Assembly: GCA_038065295.1 (NCBI GenBank)
Contig: JBBTRG010000006.1
Span: 1,596 to 55,479, forward strand
Origin: Patescibacteria group bacterium
GTDB taxonomy: Bacteria > Patescibacteriota > Minisyncoccia > JACROR01
Reading direction: 5' to 3'
Length of the DNA: 53,884 nt
Part shown: positions 1-29,586 of the stretch, in pieces
How positions within the stretch are numbered: position 1 is the first letter of the stretch
Layout: every line of letters begins with the position of its first letter
Program-made: the position numbers and the translations under genes
The notes under the pieces: generated by a model
What the model saw: only the letters and a program-made list of their open reading frames with translations
Databases searched by the model: none
Told to the model about the DNA's origin: nothing

Positions 1-3000
1 TTTGGCACCAACGGCGGTAGTGTGGGAATTGGCACGACGAGTCCATGGGGAATACTTTCTATTCAAGGCACTGCGGGACAAACCGCGCCATTATTCATTA
101 TTGCGACATCAAGCGCGGCAACAAATCCTATTTTCGCGATTGATTCATCTGGCAACGTGAACATGCGGGGAATATTGAACGCTTCTTCCACATCATTCTT
201 CAGCGGCGATTCTCTCTTCAACGGAAATATCCTCATTGGATCAACCGGAACAACAACACACCTGGCTACCACAATACAAAATCACGCCCTGCAAATACAA
301 GGAGGTTTCAGCGCGGACGGAGATCTAGAAGCTCTCAATACATTTTATGTAAAACCGAGAACAGCCAGTTACGCCGGAGCTTCATTTGATACCGCCGCGA
401 GTGGCAATACGGATCCTCGCGGTATAACCCAATACGGAGGGTTCTTTTGGATGGTGGATCGCGCGGGGGCACAAGTATATAAATACACAACAACAGGAAC
501 TTATACGGGGGTATCTTTTGATACCGCCGCGAGTGGAAATACGAGTCCTCGCGGTATAGCCCAATACGGAGGGTTCTTTTGGATAACGGATGACTTGAGC
601 GACGGAGTGTATAAATACACCGGCGATGGAACTTATACCGGCATATCTTTTGATACTGCCGGTAGCTGGGGAAATACGAACCCTTCCGGAATTATTCAAT
701 ACGGAGGGTTCTTTTGGGTAACGGATGAGTCAGACGATGAGGTGTATAAATACACCACCGATGGAACGTACACCGGCATATCTTTTGATACTGCTGGAAG
801 CGGAAACGTAAATACTCGTCAAATTACCCAATACGGGGGGTTCTTTTGGGTAATCGGTTATGTAACCAATAGAGCGTACAAATACACCACCGATGGAACG
901 TACACAGGAGTGTTTTTTGATACCTCCGGAAGCGGGAATGGAAATCCTGTTGGTATAACCCAGTACGGAGGGTTCTTTTGGATAACGGATGATTCAGACG
1001 ATGAGGTATATAAATACGGAATCTCCACTGATACCTACACCACCGGGCTTACCGCCGCGACTTCTACCGCGCAGTTTGGGGTAGGCACCACTACCCCTTG
1101 GGGTCTTCTTTCCATAAATCCCAACGCACTGGGAGCGGGCGTGCCGTCTTTTGTCATTGGTTCTTCCACGGCTACGAGCTTGATTGTTACGAATGGCGGC
1201 AACGTCGGCATCGGGACGACGAATCCTCTTTCAACATTACAAATAGGAGCAGGCACTGGAACATATTTGCCAACCGCGACCCCTAAAACAATTATCTGGG
1301 ATACCAGCAATACAACTGCCAATGGAGGGAATGTCGCAATAGTAGCCAGCAATCTTACTGCGACTGGAATAGATCTTGGCGGTTCACTTTCTTTTGGCGG
1401 TGTAAATAATTCGAATGGAAATTTTACTGATTTCGCGTCTATCGCTGGCAGAAGAGAGGACAGTGTAGACGGCAATGCTCCTGGCTATCTATCTCTTTCT
1501 ACTCGCGTGAGCGCGGGAGCAATGACAGAGAGAATGCGTATTTCTTCTACCGGCAACGTCGGCATCGGGATGGCGAATCCAACAGACAATCTTCAGCTTG
1601 AAGATACTAATGCCTACACTGCAGGATTAAAAATTTCTTACAGCTCATCATACTATTCGAGAATAGGATACAACGAAGCCTCGAATAAATTAAAATTTAG
1701 CGGTAAGGATGGAACATCCGAATCTGATCGAATGACAATCGACATGACAAACGGCAACGTCGGCATTGGGACTATAGCGCCACAGACAACGCTTGGGATT
1801 CAAAGTACAGGAGCGGTAAGACAAGGTATAAACGCTCATCTAGAGGTCACAGATAACACTGCTTTTGCAGCAGGAGTTGGTGGTGGCATTGCCTTTAGCG
1901 GACAATACAGAACTCCGACCAGCAATACAGACTATGTGCCATATGGCTTAATTAAGGGATACAAACTTAATGCAACCTCAGCAGACTATAGTGGCGGATT
2001 GCAGTTTTACACCGTCACGAGCGGAGGAAACCTGACGCAAAAAATGGCTATAGATAATTCCGGCAACGTCGGCATAGGGACGACGACGCCGGTAACAAAA
2101 TTACACATATCGGGGGAAGCTGAGACACTTAGATTAAGTGGAGTTAGCACTGGAGCTAATAATATAGCATATTTAACATTTCATGATGTTAATAACGTGC
2201 GGAAGGGTTTTATCGGAGATGGTGCGGCTTCTAATTCAGATATTTATCTTATTTCTGATGCCGGAAATATTATAATCGCGGGTACAGGAGGCAATTGTAC
2301 GTTCACTGGCGCGGCAAGCGGAGGCACTTGTTTTTCCGACGCACGGCTCAAAAATATAACCGGTGATGTTACGGATGTATTAGATAAGTTTGCCCAACTC
2401 CAACTCAAGAATTTCTATTGGAATGATACGGCTCATGCTCTCTATAACACCTCTACCACCATTGAAAATACCGGTTTTGTCGCGCAGAGCGTAGAACAAA
2501 TTTTCCCGGAACTTATTGAAACGAACAGCGATGGGTATAAATCTCTCAACTATGCGCGCCTCGGACTTTATAGCATGGAAGCCATCAAAGAACTCAACGC
2601 TAAAGTAGATGTGATTAAAGCAGTAATTGACACATCTTCCGCCAGCACTACCGTTCCAAGCATGTTTATTGACGCTAACGGCAATGTCGGCATCGGGACG
2701 ACTACCCCCGTATATAAATTGCATATCGCGGGAGATGTTGCCGCCACGGGATTCGTCAATGTTTCTACCCGGGAAGCCAAAAAAGACATTACTTATTTGA
2801 ATGATTCTGATGAAGAATCCGCCCTCGCGAAGATCACGAGCACGAACATCGCCACCTACATCTACATAAGTGAGACTTATGTAGACGGGACAGATGCAAC
2901 GGGTGAGGTAAACAGCGCGGGCATTCCTCGCCGTTTAGGCCTTATAGCTGAAGAAGCTCCCGTGGAGATATTGTCGCCCGATCACAAAGGAGTTGACCTC

Positions 3001-3543
3001 TACAAGATGACGGCGTTTCTCTGGAGCGGAGTAAAAGCGCAACAGAAGCAGATTGAGGTGCTCGCATTGAAGGTGGCGGATATTGAAGCTAAAGTCGCGG
3101 CCATGTCCAATGAGGGAAGAACGACGGACGCAGGAGGCGCGTCTGTTTCATCGGCTTTATCAATTTCGGATATCGCGACATTTTTTAATTCCATGGGTGC
3201 GTCAATTTCTAGCGGCATGATCCAAGCTACGGAATTTATCGCCAACAAAATAACCGCGAAGAAAGTTACGACTGATGCGCTGGAAATGAAAGACTCCGTA
3301 ACGGGAGAAGTTTATTGCGTGCGAATTTCGGGCGGTGAATGGAACAAGTTTAAAGGAACTTGCGGAGAATTTATAGCTGAACCGGCTCCGGCAACTGTCG
3401 TAGAGCCTGTTTTGGAACCGGCACCCACTGACACTGCGACATCCACGACAACGGCAGACACCTCTACAACCCAAACTTCTGCAACTGAAACGGCAACAAC
3501 TACACCGGTTACGGATGTTGCCACCACTACCAGCACCCCATAA
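1..3543 (+). CDS. Large modular surface/fibre protein (5'-truncated): beta-propeller-type repeats, GNVGIGTT-delimited modules, two peptidase S74 (intramolecular chaperone) domains, Thr/Pro-rich tail
   Basis: Frame is open from base 1 (FGTNGGSVGIGTT), so the true start is upstream of the window. Repeated GNVGIGT(T) motifs. S74-like motifs FSDARLKNI...GFVAQSVEQIFPELI...LNY...EAIKEL (~2332-2610) and STREAKKDI...LGLIAEEAP...VDLY (~2764-3070). Low-complexity T/A/P C-terminus. Confidence 0.8.
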   Translation, partial: FGTNGGSVGIGTTSPWGILSIQGTAGQTAPLFIIATSSAATNPIFAIDSSGNVNMRGILNASSTSFFSGDSLFNGNILIGSTGTTTHLATTIQNHALQIQGGFSADGDLEALNTFYVKPRTASYAGASFDTAASGNTDPRGITQYGGFFWMVDRAGAQVYKYTTTGTYTGVSFDTAASGNTSPRGIAQYGGFFWITDDLSDGVYKYTGDGTYTGISFDTAGSWGNTNPSGIIQYGGFFWVTDESDDEVYKYTTDGTYTGISFDTAGSGNVNTRQITQYGGFFWVIGYVTNRAYKYTTDGTYTGVFFDTSGSGNGNPVGITQYGGFFWITDDSDDEVYKYGISTDTYTTGLTAATSTAQFGVGTTTPWGLLSINPNALGAGVPSFVIGSSTATSLIVTNGGNVGIGTTNPLSTLQIGAGTGTYLPTATPKTIIWDTSNTTANGGNVAIVASNLTATGIDLGGSLSFGGVNNSNGNFTDFASIAGRREDSVDGNAPGYLSLSTRVSAGAMTERMRISSTGNVGIGMANPTDNLQLEDTNAYTAGLKISYSSSYYSRIGYNEASNKLKFSGKDGTSESDRMTIDMTNGNVGIGTIAPQTTLGIQSTGAVRQGINAHLEVTDNTAFAAGVGGGIAFSGQYRTPTSNTDYVPYGLIKGYKLNATSADYSGGLQFYTVTSGGNLTQKMAIDNSGNVGIGTTTPVTKLHISGEAETLRLSGVSTGANNIAYLTFHDVNNVRKGFIGDGAASNSDIYLISDAGNIIIAGTGGNCTFTGAASGGTCFSDARLKNITGDVTDVLDKFAQLQLKNFYWNDTAHALYNTSTTIENTGFVAQSVEQIFPELIETNSDGYKSLNYARLGLYSMEAIKELNAKVDVIKAVIDTSSASTTVPSMFIDANGNVGIGTTTPVYKLHIAGDVAATGFVNVSTREAKKDITYLNDSDEESALAKITSTNIATYIYISETYVDGTDATGEVNSAGIPRRLGLIAEEAPVEILSPDHKGVDLYKMTAFLWSGVKAQQKQIEVLALKVADIEAKVAAMSNEGRTTDAGGASVSSALSISDIATFFNSMGASISSGMIQATEFIANKITAKKVTTDALEMKDSVTGEVYCVRISGGEWNKFKGTCGEFIAEPAPATVVEPVLEPAPTDTATSTTTADTSTTQTSATETATTTPVTDVATTTSTP
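370..1017 (+). repeat. Five intragenic tandem repeats of ~132 nt (44 aa), probable beta-propeller blades
   Basis: Unit YTGxSFDTAxSGNxxPxGIxQYGGFFWITDxxxDxVYKYTTDGT. The tttgatac anchor recurs at ~385, 517, 649, 784 and 916 (periods 132/132/135/132). Confidence 0.9.
2861..2885. repeat. Single REP-like hairpin in frame within the surface protein gene
   Basis: TCTACATAAGT-GAG-ACTTATGTAGA: 11-bp perfect stem. Core CATAAGTGAGACTTATG is identical to half of the palindromes flanking the transposase. Confidence 0.85.
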
Positions 3544-3580
3544 GTCTCACTTATGTATACATAAGTGAGACTTATGGGGT
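3535..3580. repeat. 46-bp perfect palindrome (two inverted REP-like hairpins), left flank of RAYT
   Basis: ACCCCATAAGTCTCACTTATGTATACATAAGTGAGACTTATGGGGT equals its own reverse complement. It contains the TAA stop (3541-3543) of the upstream gene. Confidence 0.95.
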
Positions 3581-3620
3581 AGAATAATTACAATATTGGA
3601 CAAATAGCTTAATTATTATT

Positions 3621-4274
3621 ATGAATCGCAAAATTGAATTCTCCATCGGAGAATTTTATCACCTGTATAATAGAGGTAATAATAAAGGAAAGATATTTCT
3701 GAACTACGGAGATAATGACCGATTTTTAAAATTATTATTTCTTTGCAATAATACCAAGCCGGTTGTTTTTAGAGACATTCCTAATCATGCAATCTACGAC
3801 AACGAGCGCCGCGCAAATACTCTAGTGGATATTGGCGGCTACTGTCTGATGCCAAATCATTTTCATATCTTGGTGTTTGAGAGGGAAGAGGGCGGCATCA
3901 GTTTATTTATGCAAAAATTATCAACTGCGTACTCTTTGTATTTTAATAAAAAACATTATCGTACCGGTAAATTATTTGAAGGAGTTTTTCAGGCGACTCA
4001 TGCCCAAGATGACGGATATCTCCAGTATCTTTTTGCCTATATTCATCTGAATCCAGTGAAATTACTGGAACCGCAATGGAAAGAAAAAGGCATTGTAGAT
4101 GTGGCCAAGGCGGAAGGATTTTTGCACAATTATCAATATTCAAGCTACCAAGATTATGTTGGTGGCTCGCGTTCTGAAGCGGCAATTTTGAATAAAGACG
4201 CTTTCCCAAAATATTTTGAGAGCAAAAAAGAATTCCAAGATTATTTAAAAGATTGGCTGACTTATCAACCGTAA
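3621..4274 (+). CDS. REP-associated tyrosine transposase (RAYT; Y1/HUH, IS200-like)
   Basis: YHLYNRG N-terminal motif, YCLMPNHFHIL (HUH), LFEGVF, YIHLNPV (catalytic Tyr) and YQYSSY tail typical of RAYT. Flanked by palindromes; no tnpB. Confidence 0.9.
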   Translation: MNRKIEFSIGEFYHLYNRGNNKGKIFLNYGDNDRFLKLLFLCNNTKPVVFRDIPNHAIYDNERRANTLVDIGGYCLMPNHFHILVFEREEGGISLFMQKLSTAYSLYFNKKHYRTGKLFEGVFQATHAQDDGYLQYLFAYIHLNPVKLLEPQWKEKGIVDVAKAEGFLHNYQYSSYQDYVGGSRSEAAILNKDAFPKYFESKKEFQDYLKDWLTYQP

Positions 4275-4279
4275 ACCAA

Positions 4280-4323
4280 TACCCATAAGTCTCACTTATG
4301 TACATAAGTGAGACTTATGGGTA
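4280..4323. repeat. 44-bp perfect palindrome, right flank of RAYT
   Basis: TACCCATAAGTCTCACTTATGTACATAAGTGAGACTTATGGGTA is self-complementary. It differs from the left copy at the centre (GTAC vs GTATAC) and the outer ends. Confidence 0.95.
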
Positions 4324-4330
4324 ACAAAAA

Positions 4331-4945
4331 ATGCGGCTAAAAAAGAAATTTTTTGAACAAAATACGCTGAGAGTCGCGCGTGAACTGCTCGGAAAAACGC
4401 TGGTGCGTAAATGGCGCGGCAAGGAACTTCGCGGCGTCATAACCGAGACCGAAGCGTATAGAGGTTTTAGCGACAAAGCCTCGCATGCCTGCCTGTCCGG
4501 TAGGCAGGCCTACCTGTCCGGTAGGCAGGTTTCGCGCGGAATAACGCCACGCACCGCTCTCATGTTCGGAGAAGCGGGGAGAGCGTATGTTTATCTGATT
4601 TACGGAATACACCACTGCCTTAATATAGTAACGGAGAAAAACGGTTATCCTGCGGCAGTGCTCATCCGTTCCATTTGGCTATCCGATAGCCAAATGACAA
4701 TTAATGGACCGGGAAGAATATGCAAATTTTTGCATATTGATAAAACGCTAAACGGCGAAGATATTATAAAAAGCCGGAAACTTTGGATTGAATCCAATCT
4801 TGCCGCGCAAAGGCCGAATAAAATTTTACGGGGACCAAGAATCGGCATTGATTATGCCGGTGAATGGAAAGATAAGCCCTGGCGATTCTATTTGGCTATC
4901 GGACAGCCAAATAGAATAAAACGAAAAAATAAAATGCTATCTTAA
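4331..4945 (+). CDS. mpg: DNA-3-methyladenine glycosylase (MPG family) with 14-aa repeat-derived insertion
   Basis: VARELLGK, ITETEAY, AYVYLIYGIHHCLNIV, AAVLIR, NGPGR, RIGIDYA, PWRF motifs. Confidence 0.92.
   Translation: MRLKKKFFEQNTLRVARELLGKTLVRKWRGKELRGVITETEAYRGFSDKASHACLSGRQAYLSGRQVSRGITPRTALMFGEAGRAYVYLIYGIHHCLNIVTEKNGYPAAVLIRSIWLSDSQMTINGPGRICKFLHIDKTLNGEDIIKSRKLWIESNLAAQRPNKILRGPRIGIDYAGEWKDKPWRFYLAIGQPNRIKRKNKMLS
4487..4530. repeat. Two tandem 21-nt palindromic units in frame in mpg
   Basis: GCCTGCCTGTCCGGTAGGCAG GCCTACCTGTCCGGTAGGCAG GT; encodes CLSGRQAYLSGRQV between KASHA and SRG. Confidence 0.9.
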
Positions 4946-4949
4946 AATT

Positions 4950-7667
4950 ATGGAAGAAAATATGATTTGGCACGCAAGACACCCAAAGGAAATAGCGGAA
5001 CAATTACATTCCAATTTAAAAAACGGGCTGTCTTTTGAACAATACAAAAGTTCTCTGAAATTATACGGTCCCAACGCGATTGAAAAGAAAAAACGATTTT
5101 GGCTGGCCAATTTATTGTGGCATCAAATAAAAAGCCCGCTAGTTTTTATTTTAATTTTTGCGGGCATCGTGGCAGCGGCGCTTCATGAGTGGTCGGATGC
5201 CGCGGTTATAAGCATAACCTTGATTATAAACACCGCGGTAGGCGCGCTCCAGGAAGGCAAAGCAGACAAAGCATTTGATAAGTTAAAAGATTTGGTTAAG
5301 AAACGCTCAATCGTGATTCGCGATGGAAAAGAAATGGAAGTGGATTCCGAAACTTTGGTGCCGGGTGACATTATAATAGTAAGAGCGGGAGATCGCGCGG
5401 GCGCGGACGCGAGAATTATTGAATCCAAAACCCTTTTTGCCAATGAATCAGAACTAACTGGAGAATGGATGCCAACGGAAAAACACGCGAATCTAGTGAC
5501 AGAATCCGCGCGCATTACCGAAAGAACAAATATGGTATGGATGGGCACCACCATGACGGAAGGGTGGGGCATGGCGATTGTGACAGGGACGGCAAAATAT
5601 ACGGAATTTGGCAAAATAGCGGCTTCTCTAGAAGAGACCGAGGCACTGCCCGCGCCTTTCCAAAAAGGCATTAAACGGCTGGCGCATTACATTGCTGCCA
5701 TTATCGTTGTGGCATCTATAATAATTTTTGCCGTTGGCACGCTGAAGGGGGAGGATTTGTCACAAATGTTTTTGGTAGCCGTAGCCATTTCGGTTGCCGC
5801 CATACCGGAGGGGCTTCCCATAGCCACCACGGTAATATTGGCGATAGGAATGGGACGCGTACTGAAAAGGGGCGGCTTAATACGAAGCCTGGCCGCTACC
5901 GAAACTTTGGGGTCAACCAGCATAATATTGACGGATAAAACCGGAACGCTCACTCGCGCGGAAATGGAAGTGTTAGATATAATAACGCCCGAAGAAATTC
6001 TACGGCACATACGCGCGGAGGATAGCGAACTTTTGCCTTCCAAATTGTACGCTCTGGAAATTGGAGTACTGTCAGCTGACGCATTTATAGAAAATCCGGA
6101 AGCGGAATTAAAAAATTTGATAATCCGCGGCAAACCGACGGAAACAGCCCTACTACGCGCGGGCATTCATGCCGGTCTTCATCCGATAGAAATAATAAAA
6201 CGCAATCCACGTCTGGATTTTCTGCCGTTTGACGCGGAGCGGAGACTTGCCGCGTCGCTCAATAAAATGGAAAAGGGTTCGCAACTCTCCGCCGCAGGCG
6301 CTCCGGAAAAAATTTTAAATATTTGTAGCCGCGTTAAAATAGGAGATAAAATTTTCAAAATAAGCGATAAAGCGCGCGCGCAATTAATTGACGCCTACCA
6401 AAAAGCCACGAGTAAGGGATCGCGGGTATTGGGATTGGCGTATAAAACAAACCGCTGGAAAGAAATATTCGGTAAAACCGATGAAGAAGATGCCGGGGAC
6501 GAAATTTTGGGAAGCGATTTTATTTTTGCCGGATTCGTATTGCTGCACGACCCGCTGCGAAAAGACGCCAAATACGCGATCCATGAGGCGAGAAAGGCCG
6601 GATTACGTCCCATCATGATGACCGGAGATCATCCAGCCACCGCTTTTGCCGTGGCAGAACAGGTGGGATTGATTGATACCATAAACAGTCATGACGCGAA
6701 AAATGAAAGAATTATGGATGGAGAAAGGCTGGAAAAGATGAGCCCGGACGATTTGGAAAAAATAATAGACAAAATAGATGTTTACGCGCGAGTCCTGCCG
6801 CACCAAAAAATGAAAATAGTGGAAGCGTGGCAAAAAAGAGGAGAAGTGGTGGCAATGACCGGAGACGGAGTGAACGACGCGCCAGCGTTAAAACGCGCGG
6901 ATATTGGCATAGCGCTGGGGTCGGGAACGGATGTGGCGAAAGAAGCGTCTGATTTGGTACTCCTCAATAACAGCTTCAGCGTAATCATCGCGGCCATAGA
7001 AGGCGGCAGAGTTATCGTGGACAATTTGAGAAAAGTGGTTACTTTTCTTTTAAGCACCGGTTTTACAGAAATCGTTTTGATAGGCGGCGCCCTCATGGTA
7101 GGGTTGCCTCTGCCAGTGCTTCCCGCGCAAATTTTATGGGCGAATTTAATTGAAGAAGGTTTTATGAATTTTGCTTTCGCTTTTGAACCGAAAGAATCTG
7201 ACATTATGGGACGCGATCCGCGCGCCCATTCATCGCGGCAAATTCTTACGCGAGAAATGCTGTGGATTATTTTCGGAGTAGGCATGATTACCAATTTATT
7301 TTTATTCATATTATTTGCCTCGTTAATTTATTTGGAATATCCCATACAAGAAATCCGCACCATGATGTTCGCGGGTCTTGCTATAGACGCCATTTTCTTC
7401 GTCTACCCGTTAAAAAGCCTGCGCGAACCTTTGTGGAAAATAAACTTATTTTCCAATCCCTATCTTCTTATAGCTAATGTTGTAAGCATGATTTTGCTGG
7501 CAATGGCGCTTACTTTTTCGCCGTTGCAACGCCTGCTTTCTCTGGCGCCCATAAGCATCTGGGAATTTTTGACGATTTTAGGATTGGGCATTATGGATTT
7601 AATCGCGCTTGAAGCGGCCAAACTTTACTTCATAAAAAAGACGGCAAATCCTCCCCAAATGGTATAA
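4950..7667 (+). CDS. P-type cation-transporting ATPase (type IIA, Ca2+-ATPase-like)
   Basis: IPEGLP, DKTGTLT phosphorylation site, DPLR, TGDH, MTGDGVNDAPALKRADIG and multiple TM segments. Confidence 0.93.
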   Translation: MEENMIWHARHPKEIAEQLHSNLKNGLSFEQYKSSLKLYGPNAIEKKKRFWLANLLWHQIKSPLVFILIFAGIVAAALHEWSDAAVISITLIINTAVGALQEGKADKAFDKLKDLVKKRSIVIRDGKEMEVDSETLVPGDIIIVRAGDRAGADARIIESKTLFANESELTGEWMPTEKHANLVTESARITERTNMVWMGTTMTEGWGMAIVTGTAKYTEFGKIAASLEETEALPAPFQKGIKRLAHYIAAIIVVASIIIFAVGTLKGEDLSQMFLVAVAISVAAIPEGLPIATTVILAIGMGRVLKRGGLIRSLAATETLGSTSIILTDKTGTLTRAEMEVLDIITPEEILRHIRAEDSELLPSKLYALEIGVLSADAFIENPEAELKNLIIRGKPTETALLRAGIHAGLHPIEIIKRNPRLDFLPFDAERRLAASLNKMEKGSQLSAAGAPEKILNICSRVKIGDKIFKISDKARAQLIDAYQKATSKGSRVLGLAYKTNRWKEIFGKTDEEDAGDEILGSDFIFAGFVLLHDPLRKDAKYAIHEARKAGLRPIMMTGDHPATAFAVAEQVGLIDTINSHDAKNERIMDGERLEKMSPDDLEKIIDKIDVYARVLPHQKMKIVEAWQKRGEVVAMTGDGVNDAPALKRADIGIALGSGTDVAKEASDLVLLNNSFSVIIAAIEGGRVIVDNLRKVVTFLLSTGFTEIVLIGGALMVGLPLPVLPAQILWANLIEEGFMNFAFAFEPKESDIMGRDPRAHSSRQILTREMLWIIFGVGMITNLFLFILFASLIYLEYPIQEIRTMMFAGLAIDAIFFVYPLKSLREPLWKINLFSNPYLLIANVVSMILLAMALTFSPLQRLLSLAPISIWEFLTILGLGIMDLIALEAAKLYFIKKTANPPQMV

Positions 7668-9348: not shown

Positions 9349-10017
9349 TTACTTGCGATTTTTCAAAGCATTCTCCAAAGTAGATCGGTCGGAGAATTCC
9401 AAATATGATCCCGTAGATAACCCGCGCCCCAGGCGGGTTATCTTTATTTTCCCAGATTCGGTAAAATTTTCCAAAATTTTTTCTATGTAAGCCGCCACTG
9501 CGTCCCCTTCATTAGTTGCCGAAGTGGCGAGTATTACTTCTTTAATCGTCTTGGAATTTTTGATACGATTATGGAGCTCTTTGAGGCGCATTTTATCCGT
9601 ATCAGACTGGAAAGGAAGCGCGATTTCTCCCACAATGTGGAACAAGCCGCTGTAAACTCCCAATTTTTCTATATTTTCCAAATCCACATCGCGCTCCGCG
9701 ATTAAAAGGGCGGAGGATTCGGCGTGAGTCGCGCACGAAGCGCAAACAACACCCGCCTGTTCGGCAGGCAGGCCTACCTGTTCGGCAGGCAGGTCTGTCT
9801 GCCTGTTCGGCAGACGGGCTTTTTCTCCTTCAAACACACGAAAACATTCCGGACATCGTTTTGCCAACACCTTCATTTCTAAAAAAGCTCCGGCAAATTC
9901 TTCCAAAATTTCCGGCTTTTCATCCGCCAAAGCGTATACGAAACGGCGCGCCTGCCGCGGACCTATGCCGGGTAGCCGTTCAAACAGCAAAGACAGCTTC
10001 TGCAATACGCTATTCAT
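9349..10017 (-). CDS. recR: Recombination protein RecR with repeat-derived insertion in the zinc finger
   Basis: LPGIGPRQARR (HhH), CPEC...CASC, Toprim EVILATSATNEGD, TRLGRGL. Probable start MNSVLQ at 10017 overlaps the dnaB stop. Confidence 0.92.
   Translation of the reverse strand: MNSVLQKLSLLFERLPGIGPRQARRFVYALADEKPEILEEFAGAFLEMKVLAKRCPECFRVFEGEKARLPNRQTDLPAEQVGLPAEQAGVVCASCATHAESSALLIAERDVDLENIEKLGVYSGLFHIVGEIALPFQSDTDKMRLKELHNRIKNSKTIKEVILATSATNEGDAVAAYIEKILENFTESGKIKITRLGRGLSTGSYLEFSDRSTLENALKNRK
9751..9819. repeat. Three 21-nt palindromic units in frame in recR
   Basis: ACCCGCCTGTTCGGCAGGCAG / GCCTACCTGTTCGGCAGGCAG / gtct / GTCTGCCTGTTCGGCAGACGG; 69 nt = 23 aa (ARLPNRQTDLPAEQVGLPAEQAG). 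Confidence 0.9.
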
Positions 10018-29561: not shown

Positions 29562-29586
29562 TTGTCGGAAATGGAGTTTCCGACAA
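29562..29586. repeat. Isolated perfect hairpin
   Basis: TTGTCGGAAA-TGGAG-TTTCCGACAA, 10-bp stem, no T tract. Confidence 0.6.

Follow-up and report, generated by a model that had tools for sequence, protein, structure and literature searches.

The 53,884-nucleotide stretch of DNA considered here (the window) comes from an ultra-small groundwater bacterium of the Patescibacteria, or candidate phyla radiation (CPR). It sits within a 105,926-base contig of a genome, G000, that comprises 636,021 bases in 20 contigs and is 98.74% complete. Between a surface-protein gene and mpg, the gene for methylpurine-DNA glycosylase, lies a gene for a 217-residue Y1/HUH protein (positions 3621–4274, + strand) that resembles the REP-associated tyrosine transposases (RAYTs), as judged from its open reading frame, Pfam match, motifs and structural model. 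The gene is enclosed by two perfect palindromes, one of 46 bp at 3535–3580 and one of 44 bp at 4280–4323, each of which consists of two copies of the 17-nt hairpin CATAAGT-CTC-ACTTATG (CATAAGTCTCACTTATG, hereafter H1; 7-bp stem, 3-nt loop) set head to head. The surface-protein gene upstream (1–3543, + strand; Peptidase_S74, E 1.6e-16) has its 5′ end open in the window and is a 1711-residue open frame on the contig. On the other side, mpg (4331–4945, + strand; Pfam Pur_DNA_glyco, E 4.3e-53) forms the right boundary of the unit. Much of what follows draws on G001, a congener of G000 that was assembled independently.

Each palindrome contains CATAAGTCTCACTTATG once per strand. The left one carries H1 at 3539–3555 with the loop CTC on the + strand (0 mismatches) and, in the opposite orientation, at 3560–3576 with the loop GAG on the + strand; the right one, by pattern search, carries the same two orientations at 4284–4300 (CTC) and 4303–4319 (GAG). 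The original prediction, made from the letters of the sequence, had described this anatomy correctly, including the TAA stop codon (3541–3543) that the left palindrome supplies to the surface-protein gene and the 7 nt that separate the end of the right palindrome from the mpg ATG at 4331. The right palindrome begins 6 nt past the stop codon of the Y1 gene. The prediction's description of the dimers as spacer-less is nearly exact, but the two H1 copies are in fact separated by 4 nt (TATA) at the left centre and by 2 nt (TA) at the right. A search of the window for H1 with up to three mismatches returned 10 strand matches, that is 5 sites, against 0.07 expected, and 0 of 100 shuffles reached 10; a chance origin of the sites is thereby excluded.

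The same prediction held that each palindrome could fold as one long cruciform or as two short hairpins. The energies computed for single-stranded DNA (ssDNA) make both folds possible but strongly favor the long one, except where a protein stabilizes the short hairpins. The left palindrome folds as a single long hairpin at −22.6 kcal/mol (z −9.5) and the right one at −20.2 kcal/mol (z −10; overall, z ranges from about −9.5 to −11), with 0 of 200 shuffles as good in either case, whereas the short H1 hairpins at 3539–3555 and 3560–3576, folded separately, reach −3.9 and −4.3 kcal/mol. The corresponding RNA folds reach −36.3 kcal/mol on the left and −32.8 kcal/mol on the right. Pairing of the outer ACCCC/GGGGT bases, which correspond to the longer stem of the G001 copy, is confined to the long fold; judging from these sequences, the dimer may have arisen as a by-product when a longer ancestral hairpin was duplicated in inverted orientation. 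In a low-depth contig of public run X3 (depth 2 of 6.1), four additional letters stand at position 4299, in the center of the right palindrome, and may be strain variation in the spacer.

Promoter-like hexamers overlap the left palindrome (TATACA-18-TAGAAT at 3556–3585 and GTGAGA-18-TACAAT at 3565–3594), although these are consensus matches only. No T-run lies downstream of either palindrome on the + strand, and a terminator reading was rejected on that ground. Rfam returned generic hairpin matches only, all of them below threshold, and no conserved guide-like sequence flanking H1 was seen by eye among the copies inspected.

The class of the Y1 protein was assigned from published motifs, NCBIfam scores and the predicted fold. 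Pfam Y1_Tnp matches the protein at E 7.3e-7 (29.8 bits; cut-off 23) and was the sole Pfam match to the whole protein at E ≤ 0.01, with no helix-turn-helix (HTH) or DnaA_C-like domain found, the tail not having been searched separately. The HUH motif, N79-H80-F81-H82, is encoded at 3855–3866, and the catalytic Tyr140, encoded at 4038–4040, lies inside YIHLNP. All 60 aligned relatives share residues H14, H80, H82, N109, G116, Y140 and N144. The tyrosine motif is thus of the form Y---NP, which is that of class 2, and not the Y---Q of class 1 and IS200. According to Table 1 of Quentin et al. 2018 (PMC6006769), Y---NP marks the class 2, TnpA-REP-like enzymes and Y---Q the IS200 transposases. Within class 2, that paper gives subclass 2.1 the motifs NH[YF]H, F[QE] replacing W[QE], and Y[IV]HLNP, an SS tail and a length of >200 residues, and this subclass corresponds to Group 1 of Bertels et al. 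2017 (PMC5581495). At the level of motifs, the window protein matches the subclass 2.1 signature, with NHFH, LFEG (F[QE] for W[QE]), YIHLNP and S174-S175 in its tail.

The profile scores place the protein at some distance from the proteobacterial RAYTs. Against NCBIfam NF047646 (REP_Tyr_transpos, an equivalog model), it scores 36.2 bits (E 4.9e-9) and does not reach the 80-bit cut-off; it is therefore a distant relative rather than an equivalog or ortholog of those enzymes. Matches to REP_Tyr_transpos, again below the cut-off, are found in 60 of 60 family members (best E 1.6e-13) and matches to IS200 in 3 of 60; the window protein itself has no NCBIfam IS200 match at E ≤ 0.1. The AlphaFold model (pLDDT 93.2, pTM 0.89) shows a helical tail at residues 146–213. 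Compared with the Protein Data Bank (PDB), its top match is E. coli TnpA-REP with a REP hairpin (4er8_A; E 1.1e-5, TM 0.62 on target), the sole structural match at E ≤ 0.001, and TnpA of IS608 and ISDra2 come next at ~1e-3. A sequence search of the PDB with the single protein gave no match, and an alignment profile gave weak matches only (2xm3 at E 0.037 and 4er8 at E 0.12). Taken by sequence and predicted fold, the protein is a putative RAYT-like Y1 nuclease whose active site is intact, and it is distant from the enzymes that have been studied.

H1 has few copies. G000 contains 6 at ≤2 mismatches, all of them exact, against 0 for the reversed-pattern control; 4 form the two palindromes, and 2 are intragenic and in frame in paralogous surface-protein genes. 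No double hairpin of H1 was found in G000 beyond the two gene flanks. A census of hairpins with stems of ≥7 bp in this genome yielded a handful of families of 3–6 copies, of which H1 is the largest. Among representative genomes, one each of 185,579 other species, the H1 double hairpin had 0 matches. The H1 19-mer occurs there in 4 records, namely 2 congener contigs and 2 unrelated organisms, and chance alone is estimated to give about 4 matches in 596 billion bases. With 6 copies in G000 and matches elsewhere at the level of chance, H1 is private to the genus and forms no dispersed REP/REPIN population.

The original prediction had combined a RAYT with an AT-rich REP/REPIN family, and its two halves fared differently. 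The enzyme is RAYT-like and not a true IS200/IS605 TnpA by its motifs, by the NCBIfam counts and by the fold match to 4er8_A, and the hairpin is, as proposed, specifically tied to its gene, with inverted H1 dimers on both flanks and the core exact in G000 and G001. Nor are the hairpins restricted to copies of the gene, as 2 of the 6 H1 copies lie away from it. A REP/REPIN family was not borne out: the many dispersed extragenic copies typical of a canonical REP are absent from the 636,021 bases of G000, and the two extra copies are in reading frames rather than extragenic. H1 is AT-rich (65% AT), as predicted, with a 7-bp stem. The GTAG-type 5′ foot of REPs is lacking; no GT[AG]G was found at the foot of H1, the 5′ flanks read ACCC, TACC and CTA, and GTAG occurs near H1 copies only within or after the 3′ arms.

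The fifth H1 copy of the window, which the original prediction had not listed, lies in the surface-protein gene at 2861–2885, where an 11-bp stem includes the core at 2865–2881. It is translated in frame as YISETYV and folds as ssDNA at −8.5 kcal/mol (z −4.65). Relative to homologs from two other genomes (L054 and L055), this H1 corresponds to a 13-residue insertion of the surface protein, in a region similar to a second domain of S74 type; the Peptidase_S74 model of Pfam matches a single stretch of the window protein and two stretches of its paralog. The sixth copy occupies the matching position of the paralogous surface-protein gene on contig C4. Because the two copies share this position in paralogs, they may represent one old event followed by gene duplication.

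Comparison with G001 reveals an ortholog of the window gene with 79% protein identity and 76% nucleotide identity. For the pair, pS is 0.73, which puts synonymous differences near saturation, and dN/dS is about 0.05. The 17-nt H1 core is nevertheless unchanged in all 6 copies of G000 and all 4 of G001. In G001, one H1 lies upstream of the gene, one over its stop codon, and an inverted copy 38 nt beyond. When the two regions are aligned, homology extends from hairpin to hairpin, with none outside. The G001 gene sits downstream of a lamin-tail-domain (LTD) gene. In G000, the LTD gene has a convergent glycosyltransferase gene as its next neighbor, and synteny with G001 breaks after the LTD gene. 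Homology with the congener picks up again at the start codon of mpg. An empty site, with the surface gene running directly into mpg, had been suggested as something to look for in relatives, but the G001 gap holds a 153-residue gene of the 23S_rRNA_IVP family of four-helix bundles (L045:447–908). No clean empty site was found at the surface gene–mpg gap of G001, and none in G000 for the site of the G001 Y1 gene; a precise target site did not emerge from either comparison. With this gap filled by another gene and the neighborhoods different, the unit has therefore moved or been replaced since the two genomes diverged. The L045 gene is itself flanked by TTTAAATATTTAAAARTTTAAA-like repeats, one of which gives the surface gene its stop codon, and it looks like another small cassette in the same slot.

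All three Y1 genes of G000 have G001 orthologs at 78–80% identity, compared with 81% for mpg, and one of the three pairs retains its place beside tRNA-Pro and tRNA-Ala. The other two G000 copies are 61% and 41% identical to the window protein. Across 9 multi-copy genomes, the top identity between copies within a genome ranges from 33 to 67%, and no near-identical copies occur. Divergence like that of mpg and the lack of near-identical copies are, as sequence traits, those of long-resident genes and not of active insertion sequences. Two further observations concern the G001 sequences. The ortholog of the second G000 Y1 gene (78% identity; L030, G001:C9:12676–13325) is split over two frames near a ATGATCATGATCGTGATCAT repeat, owing either to a frameshift in the gene or to an error in sequencing. 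Two G001 contigs (L041:1440–1652 and L014:1150–1260) share ~130 nt that include one H1 copy, one occurrence following trpS and the other the Y1 gene, so that a duplicated or rearranged junction coincides with the hairpin.

The window protein belongs to a large family. At E ≤ 0.001 it has at least 7,933 relatives among 8,000 candidates scored. The names among the matches listed are all of Patescibacteria lineages and annotated as transposase, and the closest of the matches listed is a Candidatus Niyogibacteria record at 79% identity. Of 41 related genomes, 17 carry the family, with 1–8 matches each. A limited literature search found no paper on this Patescibacteria Y1 family. The association between gene and hairpin was examined at 46 loci, reduced to 45 when L024, which has a broken frame, was dropped; four short-fragment rows were not analysed separately. 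The strict test required a perfect hairpin upstream and allowed a repeat copy ≤1 mismatch in its 14 stem bases. By this test, 31 of the 45 loci have an upstream hairpin, 23 repeat a hairpin of identical type at the 3′ end, and 16 have one inside the coding sequence, clustered at residues 51–64 and 150–161; shuffled controls gave 0.00. A looser count by eye puts hairpin copies at both ends in about 33 of 45 loci. The upstream hairpin sits mostly 12–56 nt before the start codon, and many of the hairpins are near-perfect palindromes with a 1-nt center. Their sequence differs for each gene across the family, so that each gene is paired with a hairpin of its own. The in-frame H1 that this pattern would lead one to expect inside the window Y1 gene, or inside its G001 ortholog, was not found.

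The paralog on contig C4 of G000 (L001:1980–2733; 61% identity) likewise lies downstream of a paralogous surface-protein gene. Its flanks carry another hairpin, CCAAGGTG-S-CACCTTGG, twice on the upstream side and once on the downstream side, and a near-copy (1–2 mismatches) is in frame at residue 54. A solo copy of this hairpin, with ~65 nt of shared flank, is located between rpmE and rpsB on contig C1.

Three other hairpin families reach 8–14 copies each in G001 and are commoner where the matching Y1 gene is present. There are 12 copies of GGCTATCSGATAGCC in G001, where the matching Y1 gene is present, and 4 in G000, where it is absent; GGAGGTTSAACCTCC and CATAGGTGSCACCTATG have 8 and 14 copies in G001, respectively, and 0 in G000. 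Several hairpin copies are translated in frame within ordinary genes, mpg among them. In the G001 surface-protein loop homologous to the H1 site, two other hairpins stand in place of H1, and these match the private hairpins of two Y1 genes of that genome (L059 and L071). A further orthologous gene has an in-frame double hairpin at the same site in both genomes (G000:C8:9275–9312 and L084:601–641), with a spacer of 3–5 nt. The C8 version is of GGAAGCT type and the L084 version of GGAGGTT type, with pair-preserving changes in all four arms. For the C8 hairpin, G000 has no Y1 gene, and its match is found in G004 (L072); the L084 version matches a Y1 gene of G001 (L071). Because copies are commoner where the matching gene is present, occur in frame and recur as short-spacer dimers, these hairpins show the behavior of REP families on a very small scale, linked to resident Y1 genes, at least as far as their sequences and distribution show. 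A mixed dimer, with CATAGGTG-type and CCAAGGTG-type (the G000 type) hairpins 10 nt apart, is seen at about 1501–1545 of L090 in G001.

We therefore favor reading the locus as a resident REPtron/TIRtron-like unit, in which a class 2, RAYT-like Y1/HUH gene is enclosed by dimers of its cognate hairpin and from which hairpins reach new sites, reading frames among them, in very few copies; we assign this reading a probability of roughly 60%. IS608 TnpA and E. coli TnpA-REP bind hairpins in ssDNA, cleave beside them by means of a tyrosine and the HUH metal site, and rejoin the DNA. By analogy, the window enzyme would be an ssDNA nuclease-ligase that recognizes the hairpin of 7-bp stem and 3-nt loop in ssDNA or in an extruded cruciform, cuts beside it using Tyr140 and the HUH metal site, and then rejoins the DNA. 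Hairpins would in this way be copied to new places, tolerant reading frames among them, at a very low rate, and the whole hairpin-to-hairpin unit could also have been moved over evolutionary time. Such action on H1 in ssDNA or extruded DNA would account for the conservation of the hairpin, its position at the ends of the unit and its few extra copies. Because the upstream palindrome overlaps the promoter-like hexamers, the protein might also regulate its own gene through the upstream hairpin.

Several points weigh against this interpretation. Cleavage and movement are predicted here from sequence. In free ssDNA, the two short hairpins are less stable than the long fold by ~14 kcal/mol, and a protein that reads the short hairpin would need to compete with that fold. 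H1 has no GT[AG]G foot, and the NCBIfam equivalog score of 36.2 bits is far under the 80 required. The H1 family is tiny, and both of its non-flanking copies lie at the equivalent position of paralogous genes. Finally, the unit is found at different loci in G000 and G001, an arrangement that a mobile cassette would also produce.

Such a cassette is the substance of one alternative, in which the locus is an autonomous IS200-like insertion sequence, a mobile hairpin-gene-hairpin segment of ~790 bp with the palindromes as its ends. The hairpin-to-hairpin limits of the G000/G001 homology fit this proposal, as do the different gene neighborhoods of the two orthologs, and the unit fills the entire surface gene–mpg gap where G001 has a different small gene. 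The family is also patchy, occurring in 17 of 41 related genomes and matching as many as 8 times within a single genome, and Bertels et al. 2017 (PMC5581495) describe Group 1 RAYTs as among the most IS-like. An active insertion sequence, however, would be expected to leave near-identical copies, and the 9 multi-copy genomes have none, the maximum being 67%. Instead, orthologs are kept in both congeners under strong purifying selection and with housekeeping-like divergence, and one of three pairs has stayed beside the tRNA-Pro and tRNA-Ala genes. The class 2 Y---NP motif is not the Y---Q that Table 1 of PMC6006769 gives for IS200, no NCBIfam IS200 match appears at E ≤ 0.1, and solo hairpins occur without a gene. 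On this evidence, an autonomous insertion sequence seems unlikely, though it deserves to be kept in view.

The palindromes might otherwise be purely regulatory or RNA elements, serving as the operator of a dimeric form that binds double-stranded DNA or as a stabilizer or terminator at the transcript ends of the surface gene and the Y1 gene, with neither cleavage nor mobility. The fairly fixed short distance of the upstream hairpin from the start codon (mostly 12–56 nt), its overlap with promoter-like hexamers in the window, the near-perfect palindromes with a 1-nt center and the stable RNA folds are all in keeping with this idea. A pure repressor, however, would not need the His-x-His and Tyr residues that are invariant in 60 of 60 relatives, a terminator would be expected to have a T-run behind it on the + strand, no helix-turn-helix is found in Pfam at E ≤ 0.01, and hairpins also occur in frame within unrelated genes and at scattered sites. 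We regard an exclusively regulatory role as distinctly improbable. That the palindromes are an assembly artefact or a product of chance has a negligible likelihood. Contigs assembled from public short reads (four DNA runs, compared over 2700–5000) do break at the palindromes; none joins across the unit, and one folds back at 3534/3580, observations that are neutral on excision. Against an artefact, exact-match contigs from several runs cover each palindrome, the 105,926-base contig spans both, the ortholog in the independently assembled congener has the same flanking hairpin, and shuffling reached the observed count in 0 of 100 trials.

A more far-reaching interpretation can be entertained, speculative and on balance doubtful. 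The Y1 enzymes of these ultra-small bacteria and their private hairpins could together form a resident "hairpin-writing" system that inserts hairpins at tolerant spots, reading frames included (for example in the S74 chaperone-domain loop of surface proteins), and later rewrites them in place, the copies following the specificity of the resident enzyme and the double palindromes flanking the gene serving as master copies. It is hinted at because the C8/L084 site has different double hairpins with pair-preserving changes in four arms and because the surface loop holds H1 in G000 and, in G001, two hairpins that match resident Y1 genes.

The neighboring mpg gene contains repeats of its own. Positions 4677–4691 hold the 15-nt palindrome GGCTATC-C-GATAGCC, whose full stem is longer. 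It is translated in frame as IWLSDSQ and accounts for an insertion of 6 residues when compared with mpg from two other family genomes; it has 4 copies in G000, without a matching Y1 gene, and 12 in G001, where it flanks the Y1 gene L059. At 4492–4533, a 21-nt unit encoding 7 residues (LSGRQA-like) is repeated in tandem and in frame, and arrays of 2–3 such units are present at several other G000 loci, including about 9756–9797. Contigs of other organisms from the public runs accumulate on this repeat, giving a depth spike at 4471–4547 with loose ends at 4487 and 4530, and the repeat looks like a widely shared element. Elsewhere in the window, at 29565–29583, lies one of four copies of the hairpin TCGGAAA-CTCCA-TTTCCGA; of the others, one is on contig C15, beside the pair of tRNA genes that precedes the third Y1 gene, and two are at the start of contig C17.

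The locus touches on the broader question of what RAYT-type "domesticated transposases" do for their hosts. Genomes of 0.5–1.2 Mb retain 1–8 Y1 genes each, which suggests a function worth keeping in minimal genomes. Such a benefit to the host would be consistent with the strong purifying selection on the G000/G001 gene pair and with a private hairpin that is either conserved or changes together with its gene. Families as small and countable as these allow insertion, loss and rewriting to be followed, and, as the in-frame hairpins demonstrate, proteins, surface proteins included, can gain loops from elements of this kind. The special features of this locus are its zero-spacer dimers and the copies in a surface-protein gene.

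In-frame hairpins as such have precedents. Rickettsia palindromic elements insert in frame in protein-coding genes. Like those elements, and like the intragenic REPs that are mentioned in PMC6006769 and PMC3733652, the hairpins described here are tolerated as extra loops of proteins; they differ in that the families are short (15–23 nt), have few copies and are matched to a resident Y1 gene. With the IS200/IS605 transposases (TnpA of IS608 and ISDra2; PDB 2vjv and 2xo6 among others), the window protein shares a fold family at E about 1e-3, and the unit shares hairpins near both ends of a Y1-only segment and relocation of that segment between congeners. The differences are as follows: Y---NP instead of Y---Q, 217 residues compared with about 150, no near-identical copies, no tnpB gene, and a hairpin on both strands at each end.

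Among hairpin systems, the Pseudomonas REPINs (Bertels and Rainey 2011; PMC3116915 and PMC3337134) resemble the present dimers in being inverted hairpin pairs that fold as one long hairpin and adjoin a cognate Y1 gene. Here, however, the spacer is 2–4 nt, the doublets are at two gene flanks only, and neither G000 nor the representative genomes of other species contain a replicating doublet population. The REPtron of E. coli (TnpA-REP, encoded by yafM, with its REP/BIME sequences) provides the best structural match (4ER8; PMC3479197) and the same set of HUH and Tyr residues. It too is bracketed by hairpins thought to be its substrates, and typically one diverged copy of each type is present per genome. 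The window unit departs from it in having an H1 without a 5′ GTAG foot and with a 7-bp, AT-rich stem (65% AT), in its 6 copies per genome compared with hundreds, in the 36 bits of the window protein against the 80-bit equivalog cut-off, and in an extra helical tail of ~70 residues.

The closest published description is that of the TIRtron, with its TIRYT gene, rather than the classical REPIN. TIRtrons are described by Di Nocera et al. 2013 (PMC3733652) as RAYT-like genes flanked by non-GTAG inverted repeats with few genomic copies; these terminal inverted repeats (TIRs) are in some cases self-complementary, and the authors also speak of "double palindromic TIRs". Quentin et al. 2018 (PMC6006769) place most TIRYTs in subclass 2.1, for which they report no REP-like structures. 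The likeness to the unit described here extends to a RAYT-like Y1 gene between non-GTAG inverted repeats with few or no further copies, to several genes per genome each with its own repeats, and to the NH[YF]H, F[QE] and Y[IV]HLNP motifs with the SS tail (PMC6006769, Table 1). In contrast to the TIRtrons so described, the host is from another phylum, the Patescibacteria/CPR, the GGGGWSAS motif of some TIRs is absent, and Pfam, run on the whole window protein at E ≤ 0.01, gives no DnaA_C-like or HTH tail of the kind (Bac_DnaA_C, HTH_23 or HTH_28) ascribed to subclass 2.1, the model showing a helical tail at residues 146–213. The zero-spacer dimers of a 17-nt hairpin and the in-frame copies also set the unit apart, as does a hairpin rule that extends across the family, whereas PMC6006769 reports no REP-like structures for subclass 2.1. 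The locus is thus a low-copy version of a known arrangement, in which a RAYT-like gene is kept between hairpins of its own, and not a genome-wide repeat family.

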